From the UHGV virus genome UHGV-0038492: DNA of 64,000 bases; one strand, written 5' to 3'. Below the pieces are notes generated by a model. That model was not told where the DNA came from. It did no database searches and was given only the letters and a program-made list of their open reading frames with translations. Below are positions 2,784 to 61,437 of this stretch, piece after piece. This DNA is from a virus. The position numbers and the translations under genes are program-made. The first letter of the stretch is position 1, and the number at the start of each line of letters is the position of its first letter.

Positions 2784-5081
2784 GTGGAATACAATTCTCC
2801 TTTTCGTTTATCGGTAGACGAGTATCATCGTGATATCGATATTAACGATGCTTATCGTGAGCAGGTTGCGCTATACATTCACAACGTAACCGCACAAAAA
2901 TACCCTTTGGAATTATGTCGTAAAGAAGTTGACGAGATGTTGGCACCTGGTGGTGAATTATCAACCGAATCACCGTTGTGTAAGATGTGGGTGCGTAATC
3001 AAAAAACAGGAGACCGTGAAGAGAAATACACCACCGTTGATAAACTGTTTAAAACCGTAATTGATAAACAGATTATCTCCGCACCGTCATTAACCTTTTA
3101 TATCCCAGAACACATCAAACGTTCCAAGCTATCAGAATTCACTGCCGCTAACGTAGCTAAACGTGCAGCGGTGAAAAAAGAGATGTTTGCTGCCGAAGCA
3201 GCAGGTAATAGAGTTTTACAGATTAACAAAAAGAACGAACAGAACGCAGTCAAGACACTGAACAACGGGATGTCAGGCGCATTCTCTTCTCCATACACGA
3301 TCATCTTTAACCAATCGTCTCACTCTGTATTAACGTCAACCTGCCGTACTGCAACCTCATTCGGTAACGCAGGTAACGAACGTTTATTAGGCGGTAATCG
3401 TCATTATGACACACCGTCACGTATCATCGATCATTTCTTGTCCATCGGTACGTTAACCGATTGGGATAGCTTCAAGAAATGTATGGATACGTACGAGCTT
3501 CATTACCCAACCGTAGAAGAAGTGATGGATGTGATTCATTACTCTGCGGACTTCTACTTCAAGAACGAAGAGGGGATGGAGTTTGTCGAACACTATGTAT
3601 CAAATGTTTCTCCGCTCACTCGCGCGGCATTTGTTTACATGGGTGATTTTTATCATCTTGCGAAGTACAACGATCAGTTCATGCGCGGTTTTATTACCGC
3701 GTTGATTTCTCGCGAGATGATTGATGAAGTCGAAGACTGGGATGCTGCGGAAAAAACCATCGATGGTGACATGCAGATCATCATCTCCCAGTTCCGTACT
3801 GACGTGGTACCGATGGGTAAAGCATTCAGCCACGTTAAGAAACTCGACGATAAGAAAAAGCCATTGCCGTGGGATCAGCAGGACGACTACAAGGAACTGA
3901 TTCGTTCCGCACTGTTCTTACAGAAAACCATCGGTAAGTACGCACTTTTAATTCGTAATATCCTGACCACTAAAAACTTACCGATTAACATCGCAAGAAT
4001 GCCGGATGTGGTTCGTCGGGTAGGTGTGGTTTCAGATACCGACTCTACAATGATGACTGCACAATGGTGGGCGGTTTGGTATACCGGTAAGCATTACGGC
4101 GACGAAGCAACCCGTGTATCCAACGCAATGATTTATATTGCAACGCAGCACCTTCGTCACCTGATGGCGAGTATGTCTGCGAATATCGGTGTAGCGAAAG
4201 AACGCCTGTTCTTGTACGCGATGAAGAACGAATTTAAGTTCGATTCGTTTGCATTAACAACCAAAGCAAAACACTACTTCTCACTGATTACCGGTCAGGA
4301 AGGTCAGCTGAAAAAAGATCCCGAGCTGGAAGTAAAAGGAGTGTCTTTACGTACTTCGAACATTCCACCGATTATCATGAAGGAGTTTAAGAATACCATT
4401 AAAGGACTGTGTGAAGTCGTCGCACGCGGAGACCAGATTGAAATTATTCCGTTACTGGAAAAGGTTGCGCAGATCGAACACACCATTATGGATTCTATTC
4501 GTTCGGGTAATCCGGGTTATCTGAAAACAACGAACATTAAGGAACGTAGCGCTTATAACGAGAAGGACGAGAAAAACTATCACTACCATCGAATGTACAA
4601 CGCCATCTTTGGTCCGAAGTTTGGTCATCTGGAAGAACCGCCTTACGACGCTGTAAAACTACCGGTGGTTTTAGAAAACAAAACCAAGATTAAAGAGTGG
4701 TTGGACAGCATCGAAGATCCGATTATCCGAAACGGTGCAACCGCGTGGTTTGAGGAGAACAATTTCCGTAAATACAAAACGTTGATTCTGCCAGAGCACT
4801 TAGTAGAGAACTACGGTATTCCTAAAGAATTGATCGATATTGCGGACATTCGTCGCACGGCGTTCTCCACCGTAGAACCGTACTATCACATCCTTGAATG
4901 CTTAGGTGTGTTCATGATGGATAAGAACCGTATGCGTTTACTGTCGGATTTCTACGATAAAACTGCTGAAGACGATGGGCTGTATAAAGAGCTTGCGGAA
5001 GTACAGTATGTTAAGAAATCAGAAAGGGCAGGTGAGGATGATGAGGACGAAGATGAAGAAGAAACATTCGATGAAGAGTAA
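2784..5081 (+). CDS. large hypothetical protein with acidic C-terminus; weak candidate for the C-terminal half of a split family-B DNA polymerase
   Basis: 765-aa ORF, GTG start with GAGGA 5 nt upstream; contains 'VVSDTDS' (motif-C-like), 'KTLNNGMSGAF' (motif-B-like) and 'KAKHYF' (KKRY-like), but spacing is atypical; tail 'EDDEDEDEEETFDEE'. Confidence 0.5.
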   Translation: MEYNSPFRLSVDEYHRDIDINDAYREQVALYIHNVTAQKYPLELCRKEVDEMLAPGGELSTESPLCKMWVRNQKTGDREEKYTTVDKLFKTVIDKQIISAPSLTFYIPEHIKRSKLSEFTAANVAKRAAVKKEMFAAEAAGNRVLQINKKNEQNAVKTLNNGMSGAFSSPYTIIFNQSSHSVLTSTCRTATSFGNAGNERLLGGNRHYDTPSRIIDHFLSIGTLTDWDSFKKCMDTYELHYPTVEEVMDVIHYSADFYFKNEEGMEFVEHYVSNVSPLTRAAFVYMGDFYHLAKYNDQFMRGFITALISREMIDEVEDWDAAEKTIDGDMQIIISQFRTDVVPMGKAFSHVKKLDDKKKPLPWDQQDDYKELIRSALFLQKTIGKYALLIRNILTTKNLPINIARMPDVVRRVGVVSDTDSTMMTAQWWAVWYTGKHYGDEATRVSNAMIYIATQHLRHLMASMSANIGVAKERLFLYAMKNEFKFDSFALTTKAKHYFSLITGQEGQLKKDPELEVKGVSLRTSNIPPIIMKEFKNTIKGLCEVVARGDQIEIIPLLEKVAQIEHTIMDSIRSGNPGYLKTTNIKERSAYNEKDEKNYHYHRMYNAIFGPKFGHLEEPPYDAVKLPVVLENKTKIKEWLDSIEDPIIRNGATAWFEENNFRKYKTLILPEHLVENYGIPKELIDIADIRRTAFSTVEPYYHILECLGVFMMDKNRMRLLSDFYDKTAEDDGLYKELAEVQYVKKSERAGEDDEDEDEEETFDEE

Positions 5082-6376: not shown

Positions 6377-6427
6377 GACTGACTCCTTGGGGTTACACAT
6401 AGGAAACGGTCACATTCTACTCACATT

Positions 6428-6461
6428 GAAAAATATCTGAGAAAGATATTATCTATGTGAT
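6428..6461 (+). promoter_or_regulatory. phage promoter-like motif, copy 1
   Basis: 'aaaatatctgagaaagatattatctatgtgatgg', member of a recurring motif family. Confidence 0.45.
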
Positions 6462-6507
6462 GGTTCGGTGGTTAACTATTTTGAGTTATGTGTGTTCTAG
6501 ACGCATT

Positions 6508-6540
6508 CTAAAATATCTCAGGTATATGTTATCTACGTGA
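6508..6540 (+). promoter_or_regulatory. phage promoter-like motif, copy 2
   Basis: 'ctaaaatatctcaggtatatgttatctacgtga', tandem with copy 1 upstream of a highly expressed gene. Confidence 0.45.
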
Positions 6541-6582: not shown

Positions 6583-8421
6583 ATGGCTAAAGAGTTTAAC
6601 GATATTCCTAACAACGTAAATGCTGGCGCTGCTGGTGTAGACCCGGCTCCGTCTTTTGGTGGTGTGGGTGCTGGTGCAAGCAGCGTGGATAACACCCACG
6701 CAGCAAATGCTTTCGGTGGTATGACTAAGAATATCTCCACCTTCGATAAAGCGTTCGGCTATATGTCCTACGTTTCTGCCGCTTCACATTTCACCGCACT
6801 GATTGCGAAGATGGTTGAACGTAACCCGTACCTGAGCAAATTCCGCTGCGGTGTTATCGACGGTGTGAATCCAGAAATGGGTTCTGCGGCATACGTTGCT
6901 GCGCCAGCAGATGAAAACGGCAGCCACTGGATGTACGGTATCCTGTTCTTCGAACACGGTCAGTCTGTACGCTTCCGTGAAATCAACGGTAAAGAAACTT
7001 ATTACACCCTGGCTTCTCTGTTTGGTCAGGATGGTGTAATGGATTCTATCACCAAACAAATCTGCGAACAGCAGAACCTGCCGTCTGTGCAATTCATGGT
7101 AATGAACTGCATTCCAGACCTGGGTAAAACGCTGACTGAAGAGTGGGCTATCCAGCTGATGGGTCAGCTGACTCTGGGTATCTTTGGCCGTATTCCGGGC
7201 TACCTGGGTCAGATGAAACTGACTCGTGGCGATCGCTTCGTTGCACAGGTAACTGCGGTAGACGAAGGTTCTCTGACTGACGTTAACGGTTCTGCACAAC
7301 GTGCTGACCTGATGGTTCAAGTTGAACACACTCAGACCGGTAGCTTCGATACCAACCCGACGCTGATGTCCTCTGAACGTGTTCAGGGTTATCCGAGCGT
7401 TGCGGGTGTGGGTTACATCAACCTGCGTTACACTGGTCGTCGTGCACCTGAAAATGGCGTACAGGATTACAAACAGCTGCAAGCAGAAGTTGTTGTTTCT
7501 CTGATGGACTCTCAGTCTTCCGGGGCTATGGTACCAATCGAACGTCAGCTGATTGAACTGGCTGCCTTCGCAGAAATCGCCGCTATCGGTGGCTGGCGTG
7601 AACGCTTCATGCACTCTCTCAACAAAACCGATCGTCGTTTCTCCCGCGTTATGGAATACGTAGAGTGGGGTGACAAACGTCCTGATCTGAGCAAAATCGA
7701 TGGCAACCGCGAAGCTATCGAAGAGTGCCTGAACATGTTCGCCTACCCAGAAGCTGCGCTGGTTGTGAACCATCGTGCTGGTAACGGCATCGGTGGTCTC
7801 TCCACGATGTTCAGTGAAGTTTCCCAGGGTAACACTGGTACACTGTCTAACATCCTGACCATCCTGGACAACATGGCTCCGAAAGGTGCTACGGTGTTCA
7901 CGCAGCGTTTCGCTGAAATGCTGAAAGTTAATACCATCACCTGCAACCACGTTGTTATCGCTGGCGTGCCGACTGTTTCCGGTCAGTATTTCAGCAACAG
8001 CCAGAAACGTAGCTTCCAGGATCAGGACCTGGTGTCTGTTCTGAGCAAAGTTGGTGATAACCAACACGATGCCTACACTTACCTGTACGCGCAATCTTAC
8101 TCACACCGTCAGTTCAACGCGACTGAACAGCGTCTGTACCTGCTGAAGCTGGCCGCTTCCCTGTTCGGCAGCAAACAGCCGGTCGTAACTGGCGAGTCCA
8201 CCGATTTGGCAATCAACCCGAAATTCGCCAAAGCGCTGCTGGACTACGTGCGTGATAACTGCATCTTCCAAGTGAATGGTGTTACCGCAGTCAATAGCCT
8301 GGCTAATACGTTGTTCTTCAACAACGGCGGTGAAAACTTCACTCTGTCTGGTAACGGCCCGAATTCCTTCGGCAGTGACTACAACATGTCATTCGCTTCC
8401 GGTAACTACAGCCCTATCTGA
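6583..8421 (+). CDS. abundant protein with Gly/Ala-rich N-terminal tail; candidate nuclear-shell (chimallin-like) or major virion protein
   Basis: 612 aa; strong RBS 'aaaggataaataaaATG'; strong host-like codon bias (CTG/CGT/GGT) giving a 436-aa stop-free antisense frame. Confidence 0.7.
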   Translation: MAKEFNDIPNNVNAGAAGVDPAPSFGGVGAGASSVDNTHAANAFGGMTKNISTFDKAFGYMSYVSAASHFTALIAKMVERNPYLSKFRCGVIDGVNPEMGSAAYVAAPADENGSHWMYGILFFEHGQSVRFREINGKETYYTLASLFGQDGVMDSITKQICEQQNLPSVQFMVMNCIPDLGKTLTEEWAIQLMGQLTLGIFGRIPGYLGQMKLTRGDRFVAQVTAVDEGSLTDVNGSAQRADLMVQVEHTQTGSFDTNPTLMSSERVQGYPSVAGVGYINLRYTGRRAPENGVQDYKQLQAEVVVSLMDSQSSGAMVPIERQLIELAAFAEIAAIGGWRERFMHSLNKTDRRFSRVMEYVEWGDKRPDLSKIDGNREAIEECLNMFAYPEAALVVNHRAGNGIGGLSTMFSEVSQGNTGTLSNILTILDNMAPKGATVFTQRFAEMLKVNTITCNHVVIAGVPTVSGQYFSNSQKRSFQDQDLVSVLSKVGDNQHDAYTYLYAQSYSHRQFNATEQRLYLLKLAASLFGSKQPVVTGESTDLAINPKFAKALLDYVRDNCIFQVNGVTAVNSLANTLFFNNGGENFTLSGNGPNSFGSDYNMSFASGNYSPI

Positions 8422-8509: not shown

Positions 8510-9877
8510 GTGAAAGACAGATTACAATACTTCGGTGTATCAGGGCGATTAATCAGTCACGATAAAATGTTACGTGACGCTTTCAAAGAGGCGGAGGAAA
8601 AGGGCTATAAACCGCCGATGATTATCAATGATGTTGCGAAATATAAAGACACCATTGAGACGTCAGAGTTGATTAACCGAATCTTACAGAACCGGATAGT
8701 CGACGAGACGCTAAATTCGGCACCTATTTGTAGTATTGATTGTGAAGCACCTATCGTTCATCGATATAATCTCGGTATGCGATGTCCTACCTGCGGCTAT
8801 GTGGTGACAGAACATCGTATTGTTTCAGAAGTCTGGATTCGTGCCCCGGAGGAAATAGGCAACTTTATTAACCCACGATTCTGGTCGATGTTTAATGCTT
8901 TCTTCGGTTCTAAACTTAAGAAGTTTAACCGAAACAAAGTGACCGTAGAACGTGGTTCTGATTTATTGATGTGGATGTTAGATCCGTGTTATAAACCTGA
9001 TAAAGACGAAGGTACTCGATCCCGAATAATCAAACGTATCTTTAGCGAGTATCAAGTTCCACGTGGTATTAGGAATTTTATTGACCATCATCGAACAATA
9101 TTCAATATCTTAACTTCTCCTGAAGTCTGGAAAGAAATTTATCCACCGACGAAAAATAACCGATATGAGAGCGAACGTACTCGCTTAGAGTGGAAAAAGT
9201 TCTTCGAAGAACAATCACACACTTTCTTTCCGGTTCATCTTCCAATCATTTCACCCAAACTGATCGTTACGGAGGAACGACGTCAGGGTATCTTTATCGA
9301 TCCTGTTTATACCAGTGCAATAGACGCGGTTAAGAACATCGCGTTACTTTATACCAATGCACGACGTATCCCAACGCATTTCATTATTAGTCGCGCATTG
9401 AAAGCAAATCGTCAGTTAGCGTACTTCTATATTGACCATCGTCAGGAGGTGATGGAAGGTAAACCTGGATTCTATCGTGCCAAATTAGGTTCAACACACA
9501 TCCCGTGGGGCGGTCGTGTAACAATCTCTCCAATCTCAGAACCACATGACGCTATGAAGGTTATTGCACCTTGGCGTTGGTTAGTGACGTTAGAATCTGT
9601 AGCTATTGAAAACAAACTCGGTCGACGGAACTTCACACCACGGCAGTGTGAACGTGTTATTGCATTTGCATCAATGCAGTACGTACCGTTGGTTCATGAA
9701 ATTATCAACGAACTTATTAAGGAGTCTCGTGGCGGTTACGGCCTGATGATATCAGCGCTACGAAACCCGACGCTTGTACAGTTGTCTATTCAGACATTAT
9801 TTATCTCAGCTGTTAACCCTGATGTTACACAGTGTTCGTTACGTATCTCCGATCGCGTCATCAAAGCTCCGAATGCT
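8510..9877 (+). CDS. RNA polymerase beta-prime subunit, N-terminal part, exon 1
   Basis: GTG start with GAGGA upstream; 'CPTCGY' zinc-finger-like element; 'RNPTLVQLSIQTLF...VIKAPNA' aligns to bacterial beta-prime 'NRAPTLHRLGIQAF...CAAYNA' immediately before the catalytic NADFDGD; exon end approximate. Confidence 0.7.
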
Positions 9878-10227
9878 AAAATTTGGCCCACTAGACGGGA
9901 AACCTCTAGTGCGTATCCCTCGAATTGCTGGGAACTCCTAAAGCTTACGATCCCGATAGGGTGGCGAAAGCCAGAAACAATTCGTAAGATAGCCTATGCT
10001 AACCAATAATGCTAAGGGTTGTGATAATGGATAACCAGCAGCGATGAAAATCGTTCAACGACTATCGAAAGGGTAAAACCGAGTAGAGTAGCTGCTTAGT
10101 TTAGCGGCGAAGTGGGGGAGACCTACGGGTAGCAATACCTACGGTTATGATATAGTCTGTGCCCATGTGAAAGCATGGGAGGGTGTCATTGCACACCTGC
10201 TCCAAAAGGAATGGAGTGGACAAACAG
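9878..10227 (+). ncRNA. group I self-splicing intron (no internal endonuclease ORF); boundaries approximate
   Basis: core elements in order: P 'gaattgctgggaa' (9922..9934), Q 'accagcagcg' (~10034), R 'gttcaacgactat' (10053..10065), S 'gatatagtc' (~10149); exon 1 ends in U, intron ends in G; downstream hairpins. Confidence 0.65.
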
Positions 10228-10467
10228 GATTTCGACGGCGACCAGTTACAGGTTAGACGTTTAGTTGATACCACGGAGATGGATTTAGCGCTGGCTTATC
10301 GTCCTGACAACGGATTTATGTCCAGCACAAACGTAGACGAAGTGTCTAGCAGCATGGTGTTACACAATGAGCTTATCAGCATGGAAAACCGTTTCTTACG
10401 CGATACCGAAGAAGATCTGGAGGCGGGTATCGCTATCGACTCAGAATTAATCTTAATGGCGGGGTAG
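10228..10467 (+). CDS. RNA polymerase beta-prime N-terminal subunit, exon 2, beginning with catalytic DFDGDQ
   Basis: 'DFDGDQLQVRRLVDTTEMDLALAYRPDNGFMSSTNV' aligns to '[32 protein letters not shown]'; no usable RBS or start codon for independent translation. Confidence 0.65.
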   Translation, partial: DFDGDQLQVRRLVDTTEMDLALAYRPDNGFMSSTNVDEVSSSMVLHNELISMENRFLRDTEEDLEAGIAIDSELILMAG

Positions 10468-14895: not shown

Positions 14896-14921
14896 TGTAT
14901 GTGTGCAGAACACAGTCGAAG

Positions 14922-14958
14922 TTATCTTAGATAGATTTTATCTTTGTGGTCGACTATG
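14922..14958 (+). promoter_or_regulatory. phage promoter-like motif, copy 3
   Basis: 'ttatcttagatagattttatctttgtgg'. Confidence 0.4.
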
Positions 14959-14978: not shown

Positions 14979-16607
14979 ATGCGTATTGAGAAAAATCGCG
15001 ACCGTCTCATTATTAGTTACGGTGATAAGGAAGTAGGGTTTAACGGATTCCGTAATGGACGCAAAGATGCGAATGTGCCAGACGTACGCGATAGCTCCGG
15101 CAAAGTGGTTACCCATGACAAAATTATGTTCATGGAAATCGAACGTTATTGGTCAACGTTAACGTCGGAGGAAAAGGAAGAGTTATTCTCGGCGTACGAA
15201 GAGTTAGAAATGCTGGGTAATGAAGAACCCGAAACGATTCGTAAACATGCGCCAGAGATTGTTGCACAAATTGCCAAATTCCACCACGCGGACAGATTCC
15301 GCCAACTCTATCCACAAAGTTCCGTGTGGATTCCTCAAAACGTCCACGAAACTTACGAAGAAATGTCATCTAACTATCCGAAAGAGATGACGTATATCGT
15401 ACAAGACTACTACGAACTGGTCATACTGTCGCTGATGGTAAAACCGTTCATTCCGGTATTCTTGGTCATGGATGCTTTCCCGACAACACGCGCCGCTGTG
15501 GACTCTAAGCGGAAAAGCGTTTATAACTTAACCCATTGCATGGAATTGCTTTACGACACCGAGATAGCACAACTACCTGCAATCAGTAAATTGCGGGACT
15601 TCTTAGTGTCGGTGATTTCGAAAGTACAGGACGGTGGTAATAAAGGACCGAACAGTGCGAACTTAACGGTGCTGGCCTCTATCTGTGGTTACGGTACGGA
15701 TATGGTGGAAGAGTATATCATGGCATTCGCGGTGATTCGCTTAATCGCCATGAAACTCATCGGCGCAGAGTTACCTCCAGGCACGATGGTGGAGAACAAC
15801 ATCGTTGCGGGGATGTACTTTAATATCAAGCAGGAAATCGAAACAGGATTTGCAGGAAAGATTTCGTCACAGAACGTCATCTTAAAAGCGCATCCTGAAA
15901 AGATTATGTTTAACGGTGAGAAAGGGAAAACCTGTGCGATAGACTTGGTTCAGGCGCGTTCTAAAGCGCCAATGAAAGAGTTTGTTCGTACTCAAGAGTT
16001 TTTCAACGATTACCGTCGTGTGGTGCGTTCTTTAGGGATCGATATCGCCCCTGCGGATGCTAAGGTACTGATTGATTCTATTCACCTGAATCATCAATAT
16101 CCGTTCTACGAACTGTACGAGTGGCTGGTTGCAGCTGCACTGCATCGCTTTGCTGACCGCAGAACCTATAAGGACATTGACGCTGCTGCGTTTAAGAATG
16201 CAATGGGGATCGCACAAGCGATTTATATCTACTACGGAATGCATGAGATAGCACAGTTGCTAAGCTGTGAAATGGTCTTAGATCCCAATAACGGGGGCTA
16301 TCCAATCGAACCTATTGATAATGAGATCAAAATAAAATCGGATAGATTTTATCCTCAGGCATACCGTACCAATCGCAATATCTACGAACAGTCAACACTG
16401 AAGACGTCTTTGACGTTGTTGGTACGTGAACATATTGCACCGTTTAACTTCAATCTCAGGGCAACACCTGAAGCAGCAAGAATGCTTCGGAGTGGAGAAG
16501 TGATGTTAGGCTACACACCACACCCACGACTTCAGAACATGTTAGCAGAATTCCTGTTAATTCAGAACAGGAAGAAATGTGAAGAAGTGGCGTGGTTTAA
16601 TCAGTAA
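14979..16607 (+). CDS. hypothetical protein
   Basis: start moved to ATG (MRIEKN...) with GGAG 8 nt upstream; track start is 14946. Confidence 0.55.
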   Translation: MRIEKNRDRLIISYGDKEVGFNGFRNGRKDANVPDVRDSSGKVVTHDKIMFMEIERYWSTLTSEEKEELFSAYEELEMLGNEEPETIRKHAPEIVAQIAKFHHADRFRQLYPQSSVWIPQNVHETYEEMSSNYPKEMTYIVQDYYELVILSLMVKPFIPVFLVMDAFPTTRAAVDSKRKSVYNLTHCMELLYDTEIAQLPAISKLRDFLVSVISKVQDGGNKGPNSANLTVLASICGYGTDMVEEYIMAFAVIRLIAMKLIGAELPPGTMVENNIVAGMYFNIKQEIETGFAGKISSQNVILKAHPEKIMFNGEKGKTCAIDLVQARSKAPMKEFVRTQEFFNDYRRVVRSLGIDIAPADAKVLIDSIHLNHQYPFYELYEWLVAAALHRFADRRTYKDIDAAAFKNAMGIAQAIYIYYGMHEIAQLLSCEMVLDPNNGGYPIEPIDNEIKIKSDRFYPQAYRTNRNIYEQSTLKTSLTLLVREHIAPFNFNLRATPEAARMLRSGEVMLGYTPHPRLQNMLAEFLLIQNRKKCEEVAWFNQ

Positions 16608-16640: not shown

Positions 16641-18344
16641 ATGGCAATGAAACTTCTAAAGCTTCAAATCAACCCAGTGTACGAAATCCCTAAACAGATT
16701 CGTCGTCGTATTGGGTTCTTTGAATCTAAGTACGCTTTAGATGAACTCGTAAACGTTGTGGCGCAACATGGCGAGAATGCGACCAAGACTCGAGATTATC
16801 AAGAAGCGTTAGGGCAGATTGTAGGGTTTGATAATACTCCGACCGGTGTTGAATCTCCGCTGATTAACGTAAGCGATGATGAATCCCGTCCGGTACAATT
16901 CCAGTATAATTCCCGTGACACTGGCGTGTATAACTTCGTTGCGATTATCGTAGGTAACGTGATTAACGAATGTCGTACGCAAGAAACCCGTTATGTTGTC
17001 TCGGGTTATACCTCCCAGGCAGAGCGCTCCGTATTTAACCACCTGCCAGATGACATGGTGTTATACATCAATGAAATCTACGGCTTGCAGTGTACGTACA
17101 TTACCGATGCGTTCGGGGGACGTCGTATCAACCCAGATTCATTCCGTCTGGTTGATAACTACGTGCTGTCTAAAACATTGACAGCGGATAGCTACAGTGA
17201 GCACACTATCGATGCGATCTCTACTGCAAAAGCAGCATCCACGATTCGTAATCTGATTAACGCAGGTGAGAAGTTCACTTACGATGACCAAACGGTTATC
17301 TCTGCGAACTGTCAATCCGCACCGCAGCTGATGTCTGGTCAACTGACTCGTCCTGAGTCTTTCGTCACAGCGATTGCTAACTCTTTCATCAACACGATGG
17401 GGATTGAAACAGAACTGAGCACGGTAGACAGCTTCTTTGCAGGTGACCATTCTCTCGGTGTAGAATCCGAGCTGAACCAAATCGGGGTAATGCGCAATTT
17501 CAATAACTACGAACTGATCCGTGCTTTCCGTGCCGCGTTAACGAACGCGACGTCGGATGTGACTGGTGGTTGGAACGCAGTCAACCGCGCAGCGTTTAAG
17601 TTAGCTGATTTGCGTAACGCAATCATGAACCCGCAAGATTTGGATATTGCGATTTCGCAATCTCTAGCGGTAGCTGACCGCCGTGGTTTCGGTGAGATTG
17701 AACGTACCGATGATTGGGTAGGACGTAATAACTATTCTACCCAAGGTTCTCTGGTTGCGTTTGATTTGGCGATGGTACTCGGTCCAATCGTGTCCCGTAA
17801 CTTGATTGGTGAGATTACTTTCTTCTACGATAACCGCATGGCGGATATTTCCACGCAACCGATGCTGCAAGTTGCTCACCACACAGTCGGCGCGTTAACT
17901 GATGAAGGTTTGCCAGATGTATTAGCACGTCGTTTCATGAGCGATCTCCAGGGTTTGATGCTACAAGTGACCAAACACAACCGTATTCGTTGCTGCATGA
18001 CAGTAACTTGTATCGTTGGTGTGGTAACGCGCATTGAGATTGAACTCGATGGTGAGATGCCTGAGTATTACACCTTTGCATCGTTCATGAAAGCGCGTAT
18101 CCATAGTGGGGTGACAACTGATCTTAACTACACCAATCAGTTGGCTGTCGAAACGGCACAGCTGATGAATAAAGTAGAAGAAGGTTATCAGGAATTCAAC
18201 CGTGGACAAAACCGGACTAATATCCTGTCCAACATTCCTACGGCAGCGGCTGCGCCTACCAATAGCTTCGGTTCTTTCGGTAGCTTTGGTGCTCCTGACA
18301 ATACTTCCACCACAGGCGGTCTATTCGGCGCTTTCGGCGAGTAA
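16641..18344 (+). CDS. hypothetical protein with FG-rich C-terminal tail
   Basis: 567 aa; RBS 'aaaggag'; tail '...APTNSFGSFGSFGAPDNTSTTGGLFGAFGE'. Confidence 0.6.
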   Translation: MAMKLLKLQINPVYEIPKQIRRRIGFFESKYALDELVNVVAQHGENATKTRDYQEALGQIVGFDNTPTGVESPLINVSDDESRPVQFQYNSRDTGVYNFVAIIVGNVINECRTQETRYVVSGYTSQAERSVFNHLPDDMVLYINEIYGLQCTYITDAFGGRRINPDSFRLVDNYVLSKTLTADSYSEHTIDAISTAKAASTIRNLINAGEKFTYDDQTVISANCQSAPQLMSGQLTRPESFVTAIANSFINTMGIETELSTVDSFFAGDHSLGVESELNQIGVMRNFNNYELIRAFRAALTNATSDVTGGWNAVNRAAFKLADLRNAIMNPQDLDIAISQSLAVADRRGFGEIERTDDWVGRNNYSTQGSLVAFDLAMVLGPIVSRNLIGEITFFYDNRMADISTQPMLQVAHHTVGALTDEGLPDVLARRFMSDLQGLMLQVTKHNRIRCCMTVTCIVGVVTRIEIELDGEMPEYYTFASFMKARIHSGVTTDLNYTNQLAVETAQLMNKVEEGYQEFNRGQNRTNILSNIPTAAAAPTNSFGSFGSFGAPDNTSTTGGLFGAFGE

Positions 18345-20103: not shown

Positions 20104-20114
20104 AGTTGTTCCTA

Positions 20115-20145
20115 AATTAAGTGAGATAGATATTATCCTACCGAA
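20115..20145 (+). promoter_or_regulatory. phage promoter-like motif, copy 4
   Basis: 'aagtgagatagatattatcctacc' in a divergent intergenic region. Confidence 0.4.
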
Positions 20146-20166: not shown

Positions 20167-22407
20167 ATGAAAACGCCGGTTGAGCTATTGAGCAGCGTCG
20201 CTGACCGTGAAGTTAATATCGCACAGGTATCAGGTGCAAGGGCATCGATGGTAGGTAACCATATGAAATCCTCGGTGCCGATTGACCATCCTGAGCCGTC
20301 GCCTCACTTTACGGGCGCAGATACCAATTACCACGATTTTCTGTTTAACGATATTGTGGAAGACAGTGGGAGCATCTGTCATTACACAACTAAGGAAGGT
20401 AGACAACGTCGCGCAACGTTTACCCGTTATGGTCGTCGTGGGGATTCCCGTGCGCTGGAACACGCGATATTCTTCCGCCGTGCAGAATGCCGTATTCCGG
20501 GCAAAACAATGATAGACGTTATCGAGATTAACTTTTATACTAATCACGATAACGTGTTCTCTTCCGAGAAATGGGAATCACCAAAGCTGCGTAGTTTGTT
20601 ACGCGGTGAAACCGACCAGTTAGAAAAGGATGAAATCCTGACGACGATGCCGTGTATGGTGGATGGTGAATTCGCAGACAGTGTGGTGCTGCCAACGGTT
20701 ACCATTTCACACCCAGACATTATCGAGGATTCCTACACGATTTCCGAAGAAGCGGCACAGAAGCTTCACGGATACGGGTTGAAGGTTATCGAGAAAACCT
20801 TACGTGAAGATGAATTCTTGCTGGATACCTACGGCTATAACGATCCCGAGGGAAATCGTGTACCGCGCTATTTTCCAGACGTGGGTGAAGCGATTCGTGA
20901 TGACGGATTAGTTATCGCTTCTCGTCGTTTCGATGACCTGTACGCAGCGATTGATGCAACCTTAGGGGAAACTCAACACGTTTCTCCGTTCTTCGATAAC
21001 TGTGATTACGTGGATGCCGATCCGATACACTATAAAGCGCGTTTGGAAAACAATCACGAACTGATGGAACGTAGCGGAACTCGCATTGTTGATATTCAGG
21101 TTTGGCGTGATGAAACGTCATGCGGTAATGGAACGAATAACATTAACTGTACTGAAGAGAACAAACGTGAGCTTGACAAATACGCATTGGCGTTAAAGGA
21201 CTACTACAATGCGATTGTTCGCTTCTATTTCTCCGTGTCGAGAGATAAAAACATTATCTGGTCTCCCAAAGCGTGTGTGTTGCTGGAGAAAGCTTTTGCA
21301 TCCGAAACGTACGAAGTCTACGCAGAGTTTCGTGAAGAAATTCGCGGAGTGATTGAAGACGCAATTCGTCGCGGCGAATACGGTAAAGAGAACGTAAGTC
21401 AACAGATTATCTCCAAATTGACTTCACCTGTTCAGCGCGGATTAAGCGATCCCATCAATACGTGCACAATTCGTATCGCGGTACGTTATCCGATCCCGGT
21501 GACGGTGTCTTCTAAGATTACCGACCGCTCGGGTACGAAAGGGATTGTGGGTCGTGTACTGCCAGTTGAACAGATGCCAATTAACGAGTTCGGCGAACGT
21601 GTCCACGTACTACGTTCAATGAACGCCGTGATTCGTCGTTCTACCTACGCCGCGCTGTTCCACATGTATTGGTCAGCAGCATCTGAACAGCTGAAGATGC
21701 GTCTTAAACCGATGCTGGATGAAGGACGTATTGGTGAGTGTTGGGAAATCCTGATGGACTACCTTTCACGCTATAATCCAGAATGGGCGAACACGTTACA
21801 GGCTACGCATCCTACGGAGGATTTGCAGCGAGAACTCTTTAAAGAGATTTACGATTTCACCATCCGCATTTACTTACCTCACGAACTTGATGACACTCCG
21901 GTGGAAATCAGTGAACGTTTAGGTGAGTTTAAACCTCGTAAGTCGAAACTGCTTATTACCAATTACGATGGTAAACAGGAATGGACAAAAGACGAGTTTT
22001 ACGTGGGTGGTGTAGAAACATTACGGCTTGATAAGACGGGACGTGAATTCTCAAGTATTTCGTCGATGTACCTGAACTACCTGGGCACGATTGATGCGTC
22101 TAACCAAGGACGTGGTTCGTATCCGGTAAACTATAAAACGTTAAAATGGGCTGGTCCTTCGGAAGAACGACTATTAGCGGGTTATGGTCCAGGTAACTAC
22201 GAAGAGGTTCACGATAGGGCAAATAACCCTGCTGTACATCGAGAGATTTTAGTAGGGCTGTACCGATCTCAAACCCCTTCCAATCCGGGCGTACTGGTAG
22301 ACCGGAATAAACTCCCATTAGGAGATTCGCAGATTGACAGAATGATGAAAAACATTCATAGCTGCGAAGGGTTTGAATTGGTGAAAATGAAAAGGGGCGA
22401 AGAATAA
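20167..22407 (+). CDS. RNA polymerase beta subunit, C-terminal fragment
   Basis: 'DRSGTKGIVGRVLPVEQMPINEFGERVHVL' aligns to beta '[31 protein letters not shown]'; 'EERLLAGYG' aligns to 'GEMEVWALEAYG'. Confidence 0.7.
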   Translation: MKTPVELLSSVADREVNIAQVSGARASMVGNHMKSSVPIDHPEPSPHFTGADTNYHDFLFNDIVEDSGSICHYTTKEGRQRRATFTRYGRRGDSRALEHAIFFRRAECRIPGKTMIDVIEINFYTNHDNVFSSEKWESPKLRSLLRGETDQLEKDEILTTMPCMVDGEFADSVVLPTVTISHPDIIEDSYTISEEAAQKLHGYGLKVIEKTLREDEFLLDTYGYNDPEGNRVPRYFPDVGEAIRDDGLVIASRRFDDLYAAIDATLGETQHVSPFFDNCDYVDADPIHYKARLENNHELMERSGTRIVDIQVWRDETSCGNGTNNINCTEENKRELDKYALALKDYYNAIVRFYFSVSRDKNIIWSPKACVLLEKAFASETYEVYAEFREEIRGVIEDAIRRGEYGKENVSQQIISKLTSPVQRGLSDPINTCTIRIAVRYPIPVTVSSKITDRSGTKGIVGRVLPVEQMPINEFGERVHVLRSMNAVIRRSTYAALFHMYWSAASEQLKMRLKPMLDEGRIGECWEILMDYLSRYNPEWANTLQATHPTEDLQRELFKEIYDFTIRIYLPHELDDTPVEISERLGEFKPRKSKLLITNYDGKQEWTKDEFYVGGVETLRLDKTGREFSSISSMYLNYLGTIDASNQGRGSYPVNYKTLKWAGPSEERLLAGYGPGNYEEVHDRANNPAVHREILVGLYRSQTPSNPGVLVDRNKLPLGDSQIDRMMKNIHSCEGFELVKMKRGEE

Positions 22408-24506
22408 TGAAGGCGACTCCGGTTCACGTAAGAGACTTGTGCAAGTTGAATTCGGATCAGGTGTGGCTACTTCGGGGCGTTTACGACGTGTCCTTCGACG
22501 ATGGGGTCACGTTGAGAATGTCTGGTCGACACATTAAGTTGAGCTGGCCGTATTGGGGATTAACCCAGTTTTATCCCCAGGTGCCAATCTCGTCGAACAT
22601 GGCGTATAAGCATGGCGACACGGCAACTGACGATGCGCATCTGCGCTTTATGTCGTTGGCGGCTGTAGCGGCACGTAAGGCCGGAGTGGATCTGGCCGAT
22701 ACCCGTTACCTGTTATCACAACACGTTTATGCAAACGCGTTTAACCTGACGGTGAAAAACTTGTTGTCGTATTGTGTTACCATTGACTACGATACGATGA
22801 TGGAGATTTATCAGCATGAAAACTTCAAGCTGATTATTGAGTGGTCTAAGCACTATCCGACGGGTTACGATGAAGAGGGTAACGATAAGGTAGAAGAAGC
22901 CTATCAGCTCATTGAGAAAATCTTTAAAGATCCGAGACTCTCAAACAACCCGGTCGTCATGTCTGTGTTAGACCGCACACTGAAAATGGATCAGATTCTC
23001 CAGGCTTACATTCGTGGTAAGACTTCAGAGATTGATTCCCGTGTGTATTCTAACCAGGTATGGGAAGGTTTCTTCACCGGCCTGCATTCTGTTATCAGTC
23101 GACTGAAAGAAGCAGGTGCGACATCGCGTTCACACCTGTATAACACCGACAAGATTGCAGACGCAGAGTACGCATCACGTAAGTTGCAGTTAGCGGCTAA
23201 CGTGCTGATGTTCTTCGATTACGAAGACTGTGGTACACATCACGTACACAGACACACCTTTACGAATTCGCCGTTGGAAGAAGCGAAATTCAAAGCGATG
23301 AAAGGAATGCGTTATCGCTTCGAAGGTACTGGTGGTCCGTGGTTACGATTCGAAGACGGTGAGTTTGAGAAAGTCTTGAACAAACCTATCGAGTTCCGTA
23401 CCGCGATGTGTTGTAAAGGGATGTCACGGCAGACTATCTGTGCAACGTGTATGGGTGACTTGATTTATAACCTGTCACCTGGTACATCACCGGGTCACCT
23501 TGCGTCAACCGCAATCTCGGAAAAGGGTACTCAGGGTATTCTGTCGACGAAACACCTTGACTTCCTGCGTTATCTGCTGAACTTGGTTTTGTCGCCAAGA
23601 ATGCGTGATTATCTCACGGAGTATAAACACAACTCCGTTAAAGGGATTAGTTTACTGGAGAAGCCGCAATACGGTACTTGGGATGAATACCAACTGGTAA
23701 TTTCGGATGAAGTCTATTCAGAGATTAGCCAGATTGCGTATCATGAAGACCTGGACGATATTGATGAAACGGCACTCCCGGAAATTAACGACCTTACGTT
23801 TGTTCGTTTAGATGCAGAAGGGAATATCCTGGCAGAAGATCCGATTGACGTTCGAATGGGCGTCTGCGGTAACTTCTCTAAGTCATTCCTTCGCTTCTTC
23901 TTGAAGAATCGTGATAAGCTCGTATTCCCCAGCAAGAAAACGGTGCGTGTTCCGCTAAAAGGGTGGAAACCGTCCTGGCCGATCCTAATTTATACGAATC
24001 GGTCTGAATCTATGGCGGAGTTTGTAGCAGGGTTGGAATTGATTTTACGTTCGGTAGCATCGGACAAGTCAGATAACTTCGAACAGTTCTCGGACGAGTC
24101 AATGCGTTTGAGCAAGAAGAGTGGTAAGGTTAAACCGATTACCCTCGTTCAGATGCGTGGTGCCACGGAGAAACAATGTACTCATGCGTTGTTCTACGTG
24201 TTCAAATATATCCAACGTAAACTCAAAGGGATTCCGATGACGCACATCGCGATTATGTTGGCAATCTCTCGTGTTGAGTCACCTACTAACCCATTCCCGG
24301 CAGTAGGGTTTGACAGTGAGGATGCTGATGCCGCAGAAGGAAAACGTTTCGAAGATCACAATACGCTGATTGCGATGCGTTCTGCGATTCCGATGTTGCT
24401 GTTTGAGGGACAACAGAAGAACTTGGACAACGTACGTTTCTATACGTCACGTAAACGTCCTGCTTCGTTGTACGACAATTCTGTCGCGGCAACGATTATT
24501 GAGTAA
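22407..24506 (+). CDS. RNA polymerase beta-prime subunit, C-terminal fragment
   Basis: bridge-helix-like 'GATSRSHLYNTDKIADAEYASRKLQ...EDCGTH' and trigger-loop region 'CCKGMSRQTICATCMGD...AISEKGTQGILSTKH' align to beta-prime '[24 protein letters not shown]...DDCGTH' and 'CAHCYGRDL...SIGEPGTQLTMRTFH'. Confidence 0.7.
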   Translation: MKATPVHVRDLCKLNSDQVWLLRGVYDVSFDDGVTLRMSGRHIKLSWPYWGLTQFYPQVPISSNMAYKHGDTATDDAHLRFMSLAAVAARKAGVDLADTRYLLSQHVYANAFNLTVKNLLSYCVTIDYDTMMEIYQHENFKLIIEWSKHYPTGYDEEGNDKVEEAYQLIEKIFKDPRLSNNPVVMSVLDRTLKMDQILQAYIRGKTSEIDSRVYSNQVWEGFFTGLHSVISRLKEAGATSRSHLYNTDKIADAEYASRKLQLAANVLMFFDYEDCGTHHVHRHTFTNSPLEEAKFKAMKGMRYRFEGTGGPWLRFEDGEFEKVLNKPIEFRTAMCCKGMSRQTICATCMGDLIYNLSPGTSPGHLASTAISEKGTQGILSTKHLDFLRYLLNLVLSPRMRDYLTEYKHNSVKGISLLEKPQYGTWDEYQLVISDEVYSEISQIAYHEDLDDIDETALPEINDLTFVRLDAEGNILAEDPIDVRMGVCGNFSKSFLRFFLKNRDKLVFPSKKTVRVPLKGWKPSWPILIYTNRSESMAEFVAGLELILRSVASDKSDNFEQFSDESMRLSKKSGKVKPITLVQMRGATEKQCTHALFYVFKYIQRKLKGIPMTHIAIMLAISRVESPTNPFPAVGFDSEDADAAEGKRFEDHNTLIAMRSAIPMLLFEGQQKNLDNVRFYTSRKRPASLYDNSVAATIIE

Positions 24507-29622: not shown

Positions 29623-30474
29623 ATGATTGACATTTATACAGATTACGCCGCCGTTCTTACCGTCAATCGTTCGGAGGAACGTGCTGCACCGTTTCTGGAT
29701 TTAGTCACGCTTTGCATGGACTACGGATACGACGTTGCGTTAAGTGATGTGTACTGGCAACCGTCTTCTGACCCGGCAGACGAAACGGTTCGATTAGAAG
29801 GCATTATCGTTAAGTGTGCGGTAGCGTTAGGTAACCGTCTAGGGATAGCGTTAAATCCCCAGGAAGTTTACCATAAACCCAAAGAGACCGTACGTATTCT
29901 GGACGGTATTACTTCCAAGTTTGAAGAGTTTGAAGACACCGATACGCTTTACGGTATCGTGATGTCAGGCGAGACGCCGGAATACATTCTGGAAAGTATC
30001 TGTCGTTATGTTTACGGTGACGACAATATTCATTTCGAAGATTTGGTTGTTCGGGTGTCTCCTCGTGTAATGACCGTGATGAGAAACTACCTGTCTTCTG
30101 TGACCGTGGATGAACAATTAGCGGCAGGTAACGACAGACGTTTGTCTCGTATTGCTGATTACCTTCGTTTATATCCTCAAAACCCATCAGCATTTGTATT
30201 CCTTAACTTACCAGACCTGCCTGATTTGACCGTGGTTCAGCAGTCGCTGGTCTTCGATGTTGAAGACTACTCGGAAGCCGAGCTGTTGGAAATGTATGCA
30301 GTGGGCTTAACGATTATCGATAACGAGGATTACGAAGATGCGTATGGTGCGTTATCAGAGAACCTGGAGAAGCTCAACAACGAAGGGTTAAAACCTATTC
30401 CTATCTTGCAACCTGCTCTGGAAAGCTTGAAGGAGATTTATAAGGTGGCGGAGGAAGACAATGACGAGATTTGA
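29623..30474 (+). CDS. hypothetical acidic protein (start uncertain; track start 29587 lies in the terminator T-run)
   Basis: ATG at 29623; 3' end overlaps next gene. Confidence 0.45.
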   Translation: MIDIYTDYAAVLTVNRSEERAAPFLDLVTLCMDYGYDVALSDVYWQPSSDPADETVRLEGIIVKCAVALGNRLGIALNPQEVYHKPKETVRILDGITSKFEEFEDTDTLYGIVMSGETPEYILESICRYVYGDDNIHFEDLVVRVSPRVMTVMRNYLSSVTVDEQLAAGNDRRLSRIADYLRLYPQNPSAFVFLNLPDLPDLTVVQQSLVFDVEDYSEAELLEMYAVGLTIIDNEDYEDAYGALSENLEKLNNEGLKPIPILQPALESLKEIYKVAEEDNDEI

Positions 30475-31762
30475 GTTTCTGGTGGCGGCGTGTAAAGCCG
30501 AAGCCTGGCGTCGTTTAGTGTGGCGTATTGCAATATTCAACATGTCAGTGTTCCCGTCGAATCGTGAAGAACCTGAAGCGTTCGATATTACGTATATTGA
30601 CGGAATGCCGCACTACTACGCGGTAGAAGATGGGAAAGGAGATTGGCAGCCCATTACTGATGGCGTGAAAGACCAAGAACTGTTTATTCCTGAAGAACAG
30701 TTTGAGTTGAAAGTCGACGACTACCCAGGATTAGAAGGACCGATTCCTACTACCGTAGGGCGTTATATCTTTAACTGGGTTGTTATCTGGTATGCGTTTG
30801 GTACACGCTTGCCGTATATGGGTATTTCACAAAACCCGTTAGAGTATCGTAAAGAGATGCACCGTCGTTGTTTGGATCACGAAACCGATGAACCTGAGAA
30901 CGAAGGTGCTATTCGTCCGAGCATGATAGAACGCTTTGTAAGCGGTTTACACGAGCTTGCACCGTTAACCGCTGGTATTGCACCAACAGGTACACTTAGA
31001 AGCCTTACAGTGCATCCTGATGCGTATAAAATACGTGATGCGTTGCTATTAAAGCATAAGGACGAGTTAGACGACCCAGCGGTGATTGTTAAGATAGAAA
31101 AAGCACTGGACGAACTGGATAAACAGTGGTTGTCGGGTGACCAATCTATCGAGTTCTATAACTCACCGAAATCACGAATGCGTCGACGTAAGTTGATGCT
31201 GATGTACGGGATTGAATCGTCTTTCCAGGAAGGGGGTAACTATACGTTAATTCCTAACGCATTGGTGGAAGTCGATAAAGCGGGAATGGATAATCTGGTC
31301 GCGAAGTTTAACTCTATTCGTGAAGGTTCGTTCTCGCGTGGTGCGGAAACCGCGAAAGGTGGGGAACAGGTACGTATCATTCAGATGATTTTCCAGAACC
31401 ACCGAATCGTTACAGGTGACTGCGGGACGAAACTCACGCACCCTGTGGTTATCACAAAAGACAACGTAAAACGTTACGTTGGGATGAACGCGATGGTTAA
31501 TGGGAAACTAACCTCCCTGACGGAAGAGTTTTTGAATAGTCAGCTAGGGAAAGTTGTGCGCCTACGCCGACCCATCTTATGTCAATACGGCCACATCGAC
31601 TGCTGTACTGCGTGCTCCTCCGAAGCGAAAGGTGAAGAACCTCGCGCTATCGCAGCGGATATTTCGTCAGCGTTTTCTAACGTTATGTCCGTGGCAATGG
31701 CCGCAATGCACGGTAAAGAAACCGTCGTTCACGAATACGATCCGTTGATCCATATCACCTAA
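30461..31762 (+). CDS. second RNA polymerase beta-prime C-terminal-like protein
   Basis: 'RGAETAKGGEQ...TGDCGT' and 'ILCQYGHIDCCTACSSEAKGE' parallel the bridge-helix and C..YG..C..C elements seen in 22407..24506; GGAGGAAG upstream of ATG. Confidence 0.5.
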   Translation: MTRFEFLVAACKAEAWRRLVWRIAIFNMSVFPSNREEPEAFDITYIDGMPHYYAVEDGKGDWQPITDGVKDQELFIPEEQFELKVDDYPGLEGPIPTTVGRYIFNWVVIWYAFGTRLPYMGISQNPLEYRKEMHRRCLDHETDEPENEGAIRPSMIERFVSGLHELAPLTAGIAPTGTLRSLTVHPDAYKIRDALLLKHKDELDDPAVIVKIEKALDELDKQWLSGDQSIEFYNSPKSRMRRRKLMLMYGIESSFQEGGNYTLIPNALVEVDKAGMDNLVAKFNSIREGSFSRGAETAKGGEQVRIIQMIFQNHRIVTGDCGTKLTHPVVITKDNVKRYVGMNAMVNGKLTSLTEEFLNSQLGKVVRLRRPILCQYGHIDCCTACSSEAKGEEPRAIAADISSAFSNVMSVAMAAMHGKETVVHEYDPLIHIT

Positions 31763-47306: not shown

Positions 47307-47355
47307 AAGAGAACCACCCTGTAATGGGGTGGTTCTCCCTTTTCTTTTTTTTTCG
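47307..47355 (+). terminator. rho-independent terminator
   Basis: 'gagaaccaccctgtaatggggtggttctc' followed by long T-run. Confidence 0.75.
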
Positions 47356-47359
47356 ATTA

Positions 47360-47398
47360 AAAATAATCTCAGATAGATATTACCTTAGTGAGATTACG
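47360..47398 (+). promoter_or_regulatory. phage promoter-like motif, copy 5
   Basis: 'aaaataatctcagatagatattaccttagtgagattacg'. Confidence 0.5.
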
Positions 47399-47443
47399 CT
47401 GTAATCTTTTAACGACCTGTTTATTACGTTTAGGAGAATTATC

Positions 47444-47620: not shown

Positions 47621-47624
47621 TTGC

Positions 47625-47654
47625 TAAGCCCTTCGTAGAGGGCATTATTTTTTC
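47625..47654 (+). terminator. hairpin terminator
   Basis: 'gcccttcgtagagggc' followed by T-run. Confidence 0.55.
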
Positions 47655-55040: not shown

Positions 55041-55149
55041 TCGTAAATGCGTCTTAGACGCTGTTTTACACCTTAAGACGATTAATGGTGTTTAAAAAAT
55101 AAAAGGTCGTCAGAATGCGATACAGCGCGTTTTAGAGGGTGTTTTAATT

Positions 55150-55190
55150 AAAATATTTTCAGATATATATTACTTAGGTGAGAGAATTAC
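55150..55190 (+). promoter_or_regulatory. phage promoter-like motif, copy 6 (near-identical to copy 5)
   Basis: 'aaatattttcagatatatattacttaggtgagagaattacg'. Confidence 0.5.
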
Positions 55191-55230
55191 GTAATACTCA
55201 TTTATCGAATACCTAATTAGGAGCTATATC

Positions 55231-61352: not shown

Positions 61353-61396
61353 AGTGTCTAAGCCCTTCGGGGCTTAGACCTTTTATTTTTTTCTTT
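61353..61396 (+). terminator. rho-independent terminator
   Basis: 'gtctaagcccttcggggcttagac' followed by long T-run. Confidence 0.8.
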
Positions 61397-61408
61397 CTAT
61401 TATTTTTT

Positions 61409-61437
61409 GGATAGATATTATCAAAGGGAGACTGTCA
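61409..61437 (+). promoter_or_regulatory. phage promoter-like motif, copy 7
   Basis: 'ggatagatattatcaaagggagactgtcag'. Confidence 0.45.

Follow-up and report, generated by a model that had tools for sequence, protein, structure and literature searches.

The stretch of DNA analysed here (the window) covers 64 kb of a viral genome that is likely larger than 220 kb. Positions 6428-6540 of the window raise the question of what kind of promoter is located there and which RNA polymerase reads it. The region reads ...cacatTGAAAAATATCTGAGAAAGATATTATCTATGTGAtgg..., and then, 80 nt further on, ...gcatTCTAAAATATCTCAGGTATATGTTATCTACGTGAacc.... A previous reading of the letters had recognized both as members of a motif with seven copies in the window, and had proposed that the motif is read by a phage-encoded RNA polymerase.

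An alignment of the seven copies defines a conserved element of approximately 34 nt with the consensus T.nAAAATATCTCAGATAGATATTATCTTAGTGA. The 14-nt core of the element, AGATAGATATTATC, is found with at most three mismatches at start positions 6440, 6520, 14929, 20124, 47371, 55161, and 61409, and the 34-nt motif begins 13 nt 5' of the core. All seven copies listed previously are real, but the first six of the coordinates given for them are 7-12 nt upstream of the core (the seventh is exact), and an eighth copy with its core at 16340 had been missed. All eight copies in the 64-kb window are on the plus strand. The element is composed of three parts, namely an upstream T/A-rich block (T-N2-AAAA...), a central CAGATAG, and a −10-like ATATTAYC. 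On the 3' side, the core is followed by N3-4 and then GTGA, with an invariant G located 6 nt after the core. The string that was said to follow the motif often holds in this general form; in its literal form, TTAGTGAGA occurs at 47371 only, and the copy at 55161 has TAGGTGAGA.

A search for the AGATAGATATTATC pattern with at most three mismatches returns 16 matches, compared with 4.5 ± 2.1 expected, and none of 100 shuffled sequences reaches 16. Seven further matches within genes (2833, 4435, 9793, 20510, 42221, 55493, and 58715) have two or three mismatches and score below 8 bits, which is at chance level. We built a 34-nt-wide weight matrix from the seven seed copies and scanned both strands of the window. 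The seeds score 33-41 bits (21-35 bits when each is left out in turn), the non-seed site at 16340 scores 23.0 bits, and no other position on either strand exceeds 12.0 bits. We also simulated 200 sequences of 64 kb with a Markov model that keeps the dinucleotide statistics; the mean of their maximum scores is 12.0 bits, and 18.8 bits is never exceeded. Seven of the eight copies are in non-coding DNA, which makes up approximately 7% of the window according to a greedy ORF map (binomial probability ~7e-8). For these seven copies, the next start codon is 29-129 nt beyond the end of the core and has in every case a GGAG or AAGGA ribosome-binding site, in good agreement with the earlier statement that the copies lie 30-130 nt upstream of plus-strand genes with strong ribosome-binding sites.

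The genes of the window identify the type of phage. With megablast, similarity is confined to short stretches, which are 73-76% identical to Proteus phage 7, Salmonella phage SPN3US, and Erwinia phages Stratton, phiEaH2, and Asesino, and no record with more than 80% DNA identity to the window was found in the phage collection searched. The encoded proteins are collinear with those of SPN3US from approximately 8.7 to 75 kb, with 35-84% identity. The major capsid gene (59055-61340) belongs to Pfam PhiKZ_MCP, and a divergent family-B DNA polymerase and a divergent DnaB are also encoded. Split multisubunit β/β' RNA polymerases are encoded as well; the non-virion RNA polymerase (nvRNAP) is represented by homologues found directly, and the virion RNA polymerase (vRNAP) is assigned by transfer from SPN3US. 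Specifically, the nvRNAP β'-C subunit, a homologue of phiKZ gp55, is encoded on the plus strand at 8510..10467, and its piece 8510-10009 matches 7ogp_A in a PDB phmmer search (E 5e-30). A group I intron (9867-10179; Rfam RF00028, 60.7 bits) splits this gene into two pieces, which are contiguous in SPN3US by tblastn. The homologues of phiKZ gp71/73 (20167-22407, plus strand; 7ogp_C, E 2.4e-30) and gp74 (22407-24506, plus strand; 7ogp_D, E 1.2e-32) were also identified by PDB phmmer, and Pfam RNA_pol_Rpb2_6 is found in this subunit pair (20167..24506). A 433-aa protein encoded on the plus strand at 30461..31762 is a probable vRNAP β'-middle subunit, with 72% identity to the product of SPN3US 39365-40657, which is annotated as an RNA polymerase subunit. 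SPN3US gp42 is a 49.3-kDa virion protein that has been assigned as vRNAP β'M (PMC5694885), and the 433-aa protein is probably its counterpart, judging by size and gene order. Because a phiKZ-type capsid protein, nvRNAP homologues, and a probable vRNAP subunit are all present, the window belongs, as far as its gene content tells, to an SPN3US-like, nucleus-forming, two-polymerase jumbo phage (Chimalliviridae, phiKZ-like).

The first gene 3' of the two motif copies at 6428-6540 (6583..8421, plus strand) encodes a protein of 612 aa that has no match by sequence in PDB phmmer, Pfam, NCBIfam, or annotated PHROG searches. A BLASTP comparison with phiKZ gp54 has an E value of 0.075, and the probability from hhalign is 1.9%. 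An AlphaFold2 model made with 19 homologues (pLDDT 72, pTM 0.76) was compared with the PDB by Foldseek. The best nine matches are all chimallin (E 1e-20 to 1e-16, TM 0.57-0.71), the next match has an E value of 0.08, and the significant matches are the chimallins of 201phi2-1, Goslar, and phiPA3. Several homologues of the 612-aa protein carry a precomputed assignment to Pfam PF25677 (Chimallin_Phikzvirus), and a protein 99% identical to it is encoded on a contig of 222.7 kb. The gene is immediately 5' of the gp55 homologue, which is the same order as in phiKZ, where gp54 is chimallin. Because direct sequence searches failed, it is the structure and the PF25677 assignment of the homologues, and these only, that settle the protein as chimallin (ChmA/PhuN, the shell protein of the phage nucleus). 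The region in question is therefore a tandem pair of motifs before the gene for the nuclear shell and, as the second gene, the gene for an nvRNAP subunit.

We then applied the window matrix to stretches of approximately 37-44 kb from four other genera, represented by SPN3US (two stretches), Asesino, Huxley, and CR5. Across the five phages, 39 sites score at least 18 bits, and all 39 point towards a downstream gene. Seven positions are invariant among the 39 sites (A-9, A7, T8, T10, T11, A12, and G20, where the core is 1-14), while Y13 and C14 are nearly invariant, so that the core reads (G/T)ATATTAYC; the invariance of some columns is partly selected for, because it was the window-built matrix that picked out the sites of the other phages. 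No single column is decisive for a score above 18 bits, and the information content is zero outside −17 to +22. An independent matrix, made of 31 sites from the four other phages only and leaving out the window sites, finds exactly the same eight sites in the window at 30-40 bits, with all other positions on both strands below 8 bits. An exact 16-mer scan of IMG/VR gives 68 matches, about a dozen of them in jumbo-phage contigs of 220-250 kb; the others occur once per contig, and by a rough estimate of the size of the collection most of them could be due to chance. Literature searches with the literal motif strings returned primer sequences only.

The sites are conserved by position. All eight window sites have positional counterparts in SPN3US, and the four sites that fall in the stretch also taken from Asesino, Huxley, and CR5 have counterparts in all three. 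The tandem pair before the chimallin gene is composed of a distal copy (TGAAAAATATCTGAGAAAGATATTATCTATGTGA; 6427..6460, plus strand; 36.8 bits with the independent matrix) with a predicted start near G6459, and a proximal copy (6507..6540, plus strand; 35.8 bits with the independent matrix) with a predicted start near G6539, 44 nt before the AAAGGATAAATAAA-ATG of the chimallin gene. The pair is kept in all four relatives with a spacing of 77-93 nt (80 nt in the window). When the five chimallin upstream regions are aligned, conservation is limited to the blocks of the two motifs and to the ribosome-binding site, and the spacer shows many substitutions and indels.

The copy at 14916..14949 (plus strand; 33.2 bits, independent matrix) is 5' of a gene for a 542-aa protein (14979-16607; PHROG 3209, function unknown), and has counterparts at 23797 in SPN3US, 24543 in Asesino, 26754 in Huxley, and 22520 in CR5. 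The copy at 20111..20144 (plus strand; 30.3 bits) precedes the nvRNAP operon, with 24 nt from its predicted start to the operon, and has counterparts at 28956, 29782, 31904, and 27772 in the same four phages, respectively.

Three further plus-strand copies are directly 3' of strong terminator-like hairpins (47309-47337, 54998-55027, and 61356-61379) that end the preceding plus-strand operons, and two of these three operons end in head-protein genes. At the first place, a terminator-like stem-loop (47309..47337, plus strand; 13 bp, then a T run) closes the internal-head-protein operon and ends 21 nt before the best match of all (47358..47391, 40 bits). Downstream of this copy are a hairpin with its 5' end at the invariant G (GAGATTACgctGTAATCTT), a 58-aa ORF (47444-47620, plus strand), and a terminator (47628-47643). 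The SPN3US counterpart, at 56281, is also located after internal-head-protein genes. The second copy (55148..55181), approximately 120 nt after its terminator, is followed by a 47-aa membrane-like ORF (55231-55374, plus strand; PHROG 8574) and a terminator (55382-55397), and its SPN3US counterpart at 65400 is before a cluster of small ORFs. The likeness of these two copies over about 40 nt had been described fairly, as the copies with cores at 47371 and 55161 agree in register at 27 of 34 and 30 of 40 positions. The third copy (61396..61429), identified by its matrix scores, directly follows the major capsid terminator, and a 16-codon ORF and a gene at 61521-62531 (PHROG 7286) come next; SPN3US has two copies, at 72473 and 72671, in this place after its major capsid gene.

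In a subclass of copies, those with core TTACC or TTACT, a hairpin starts exactly at the invariant G, and the copies of this subclass sit just after a terminator or a T-rich run. A 5' hairpin was not found as a general feature of all 39 sites.

The motif thus heads operons in the same orientation, those for the nvRNAP included, and virion genes have no copy. Specifically, the matrix scan of the window finds no motif upstream of the putative vRNAP subunit gene, the capsid gene, or other virion genes. The idea that the motif marks the best-expressed genes is not supported, since the capsid and other virion genes are without a copy and the copy at 61409 is behind the capsid terminator.

The eighth copy (16327..16360, plus strand; 32.1 bits with the independent matrix and 23.0 bits with the window matrix) is intragenic. 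It is located 280 nt before the stop codon of the gene at 14979-16607, and 282 nt upstream of the gene at 16641-18344. A copy is present at the same place in all four relatives, 280-292 nt before the stop codon, where it overlaps a conserved peptide, D-R-(Y/F)-Y-P-Q. The codons within the motif are unusual. In each of the four phages with Arg at this place its codon is AGA, which accounts for only 6% of the Arg codons in the genes of the window, and the Ile is encoded by ATA, which accounts for 8% of the Ile codons. The motif uses TAT-TAT, while the next Tyr, just outside it, is TAC in four of the five phages. In CR5 the amino acids are changed (E-I), yet the DNA still matches the motif. The rare codons together with the change in CR5 point to selection on the DNA sequence itself, the intragenic copy being kept in all five phages by rare synonymous codons.

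The element resembles promoters that have been described for other jumbo phages. The predicted early promoters are TBYAWWWWWTTTCARRYAKATATTATYWAAGTGWA for N1M2 (PMC7058600, Table 2), BSHAWWWWWTTTYARRYAKATATTATYWWADTG, ending TTTYARRYAKATATTATYWWADTG, for OBP, and TTAWTAVAA_HYWTTTRARR_BTATATTACDWHDGTG for 201phi2-1, and the core of the phiKZ early promoter is TATATTAC (PMC7058600). The window consensus was compared position by position with the OBP, N1M2, and 201phi2-1 strings; it is a close match to those of OBP and N1M2, and contains the phiKZ core TATATTAC. The likeness to OBP and N1M2 spans all 34 nt and comprises the T-N2-A/T run, a TTTCAG-type centre, the AKATATTATY core, and a GTGA that follows at a distance of 4-7 nt. 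In these phages the element is present in tens of copies per genome and, as in the window, it heads operons, among them some with genes for RNA polymerase subunits. They differ in the centre, which is TCTCAGATAG in the window and TTTCARRYAK in theirs, and their promoters are bioinformatic predictions. In addition, the phage of the window belongs to another, SPN3US-like lineage, and its gp55 homologue is only approximately 22% identical to that of N1M2.

The promoters of phiKZ and 201phi2-1 provide the experimental anchor. Primer extension, dRNA-seq, and ONT-cappable-seq have been used to map them, and they are attributed to the vRNAP. As in the window, they have an AT-rich −10-like core and conserved blocks near −20 and −30; their nvRNAP genes are in the early class. 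Applied to phiKZ, the 39-site matrix finds TGAAAAAAATTTGAGATTTATATTACTAAATTGA, 65 nt upstream of the chimallin gene, at 28.5 bits, and a second site at 24.4 bits. For this gene (gene 54), dRNA-seq has located a primary start site that goes with the early motif, and in total it has one early and one middle start site (PMC8244752), whereas the window and the SPN3US-like genera have two early-type copies in tandem. The core is ATATTATC in most window copies as opposed to TATATTAC in phiKZ, with TTAC in two window copies. The 5' untranslated regions are comparable, typically 31-40 nt in phiKZ (PMC8244752) and 24-54 nt for the promoter-proximal genes of the window as judged from motif position, the start sites being experimental in phiKZ and predicted in the window.

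More generally, jumbo phages that encode such polymerases all have a conserved AT-rich motif near −10 upstream of their presumed early operons, and this motif is an early promoter wherever transcripts have been profiled (PMC7598289). Early transcription is independent of the host polymerase and of new protein synthesis (PMC7598289, PMC13282480), and because both are dispensable it is attributed to the injected vRNAP (PMC7598289). For phiKZ and AR9, transcripts are known to arise right after infection, also when rifampicin is present (PMC7598289, PMC13282480). The nvRNAP genes are early genes (PMC7598289). In all points open to sequence analysis, the window agrees with this picture. Phages of the AR9/PBS1 type likewise have an AT-rich motif near −10, early operons, and an injected multisubunit polymerase (PMC5312081, PMC7598289), but they differ in consensus, have a uracil-containing genome, and lack a phage nucleus, and nothing in the window indicates that group. 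According to the AR9 paper, no vRNAP had been purified at its time of writing. Phage N4 also injects a phage polymerase that uses phage-specific early promoters; its enzyme is single-subunit and its promoters are hairpins, whereas the polymerases of the window are multisubunit β/β' fragments. An N4-type hairpin promoter, with a stem of 5-7 bp and a 3-nt loop, was considered on inspection of the 7- and 39-site alignments and rejected, as the ATCT/AGAT symmetry is absent in three of the eight copies and there are no compensating changes. A phiKZ-type late promoter, in which TATG overlaps the start site and nothing further upstream is conserved, was also rejected, as only the copy at 6440 has TATG after the core and 34 nt are conserved instead.

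The main alternative, for some or for all of the copies, is a middle- or dual-class promoter, read by the newly made nvRNAP, possibly with an accessory factor. It draws on 201phi2-1, for which a middle promoter of the nvRNAP β and β' genes gp129 and gp130 has been reported (PMC11512511), and for this reason a position before nvRNAP genes is by itself no proof of the early class. It also draws on the pairing of one early with one middle start at phiKZ gene 54 (PMC8244752), set beside the two motif copies at the window chimallin gene, and on the phiKZ middle motif, TACT after an A-rich run, as two window copies read ATATTACT or ATATTACC. However, all eight copies, both chimallin ones included, fit one matrix equally well at 30-40 bits, and this matrix fits the published early consensus rather than the weak middle motif or the 4-nt late TATG, which is found in only one of the eight copies. 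Moreover, the genes of the nvRNAP cannot depend solely on the nvRNAP. We therefore regard this class as improbable.

Still less credit is due to host σ70 promoters of the extended −10 or −35-less kind, used at the start of infection, even though the core TATTAT has five of the six letters of TATAAT and lies at a plausible distance from genes. The sequence-only reading had stated that the motif does not resemble a σ70 promoter; this holds for the missing −35 element and the lack of enrichment, but it needs care, as the core does contain the −10-like TATTAT, of which σ70 could make weak use. Two consensus scans of the plus strand found no site that uses the TATTAT of the motif as −10 with a −35 partner, and σ70-type sites are not enriched in either (21 compared with 22.6 expected, and 17 compared with 23.4 expected). 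The TG 1 nt upstream of the hexamer is absent, the conservation over 34 nt with invariant A-9 and G+20 would be superfluous for σ70, and infection of the phiKZ type withstands rifampicin and does not need the host polymerase (PMC7598289, PMC13282480). About equally remote is the proposal that the motif is no promoter but the site of a regulator, namely an operator or the target of a nucleoid-associated protein, or what is left of a mobile module that has been repeated. In its favour, the core has partial palindromic symmetry (GATATTATC compared with GATAATATC), which explains the weak reverse-strand scores of 8-17 bits, and three copies head moron-like units of promoter, small ORF, and terminator. 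But a regulator site is at odds with the absolute orientation (8/8 in the window and 39/39 sites), the asymmetry of the conserved flanks, and the constrained distance to start codons, and a mobile repeat is at odds with the presence of the motif before chimallin and nvRNAP core genes at orthologous places in five genera and phiKZ.

The eight copies are thus very probably early promoters of a phiKZ-like, SPN3US-related jumbo phage, read by the injected vRNAP. The proposal that the reader is phage-encoded has gained support from the published early consensus, the score at phiKZ gene 54, and the nvRNAP homologues downstream, as far as sequence comparison goes. That the vRNAP is the specific reader, where exactly transcription starts, and that it occurs early are inferred by analogy with the mapped phages.

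The five-subunit vRNAP, ejected together with the DNA, would bind the 34-nt element. The ATATTAYC block would act as the −10 element, while CAGATAG and the A-rich block would take the positions near −20 and −30, where blocks have been described for phiKZ and 201phi2-1 (PMC11512511). Transcription probably starts at or beside the invariant G, 6 nt past the core; the invariance of this G and the hairpins of the subclass, which begin exactly there, are hints in this direction. The predicted starts are accordingly placed near 6459, 6539, 14948, 16359, 20143, 47390, 55180, and 61428. The vRNAP would transcribe these units before any phage protein exists. The two tandem promoters would drive early synthesis of chimallin and the nvRNAP β'-C subunit, and the early copy at 20111..20144 would drive that of two more nvRNAP subunits. 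A block of three large, conserved proteins of unknown function would also be transcribed early, aided by the promoter within the coding sequence, and three small early units would start just past the terminators of the preceding plus-strand operons. The new nvRNAP would then take over middle and late transcription.

The element itself represents a promoter class that has already been described and is experimentally anchored; what is new is its instance in an uncharacterised SPN3US-like phage, and as a motif it raises no new question. For SPN3US-like phages, we found no description of the tandem at the chimallin gene, of the intragenic copy kept by codon choice, or of the hairpin subclass. These features might represent additional layers of regulation, namely an ancient tandem for chimallin and the nvRNAP β'-C subunit, whose proximal copy has in three genera its own conserved variant of the upstream half, an intragenic promoter held by rare codons in five genera, and a subclass in which a perfect 5' hairpin would serve as built-in protection of the 5' end, although we consider this broader proposal rather doubtful. 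The 5' hairpin, if real, would protect the earliest messages of the infection vesicle. If the additional layers exist, the promoters of the injected polymerase would be graded, and the stability of early mRNA would be programmed close to the promoter.

The practical value of the motif is in annotation, as it marks the early regulon of an SPN3US-like nucleus-forming phage, and its matrix transfers cleanly between genera, even to phiKZ. With seven invariant positions in 34 nt, the element is a good substrate for the biochemistry of promoter recognition by the virion enzyme. For the biology of the family, chimallin and three subunits of the second polymerase would be under direct control of the injected polymerase, in line with the current model of the chimallivirus life cycle.

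The plus-strand gene at 6583-8421 encodes a 612-aa protein that belongs to PHROG 8316, a family without an assigned function, and its homologues are labelled hypothetical in all 62 of 62 phage records. Structure comparison identifies the product as the chimallin (nuclear shell protein) of SPN3US-like phages. This relationship is not detected by sequence methods, among them an hhalign comparison with phiKZ gp54.

Two copies of the 34-nt early-promoter motif, distal (6427-6460) and proximal (6507-6540), precede the chimallin gene, and both are canonical. The corresponding proximal copies lie at 15694 in SPN3US (stretch L001), 16416 in Asesino (L002) and 18684 in Huxley (L003). These three have lower scores (21-23 bits) and a common variant of the upstream half, CCCAYRAAATTnnCAG, which may reflect functional differentiation between the two chimallin promoters.

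The second gene after the tandem pair, encoding the non-virion RNA polymerase beta'-C subunit (homologous to phiKZ gp55), is split by a plus-strand group I intron at 9867-10179. The match to Rfam RF00028 scores 60.7 bits (E 6e-13; gathering score, 50) and is full-length, covering model positions 1-253. The exons, also on the plus strand, run from 8510 to ~9866 and from ~10180 to 10467, and both pieces are contiguous in the SPN3US counterpart. The intron contains no ORF. In phiKZ, an HNH endonuclease gene (gp56) sits between gp55 and gp56.1 of the homologous subunit.

One plus-strand promoter copy (16327-16360) lies within coding sequence, inside gene 14979-16607, and its location is the same in five genera. 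The motif is spelled by rare codons, namely AGA (6% of Arg codons) and ATA (8% of Ile codons). This copy could drive the next gene, 16641-18344, with a 282-nt leader, or could give rise to a short C-terminal product.

Two miniature units, at 47358-47643 and 55148-55397, are self-contained: in each, a promoter motif and a strong ribosome-binding site precede a small ORF, which is followed by a terminator-like hairpin. The arrangement resembles that of morons. The former encodes a 58-aa protein of no family and starts past the terminator ending the plus-strand operon of the internal head protein gene; the latter, whose 47-aa product (PHROG 8574) contains a hydrophobic segment, starts past the terminator ending the plus-strand operon of the 268-aa gene 54188-54994.

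Only a subclass of the 39 promoter sites compared across five phages, with a core ending in TTACC or TTACT and located past a terminator or T-rich run, has a predicted transcript that opens with a perfect 6-8 bp hairpin, e.g. GAGAUUACgcuGUAAUCUU. Such hairpins are found at 47390-47408 and 55180-55199 in the window, at 4446-4465 (L001) and at 18701-18720 and 27820-27837 (L005) in SPN3US, at 5046-5066 in Asesino (L002) and at 6809-6827 in Huxley (L003). The hairpin begins at the invariant G, 6 nt past the 14-nt core, or within 2 nt of it; its position is constant, while the stem sequence varies from site to site. The hairpin may serve as a 5'-terminal protective stem-loop of early mRNAs.
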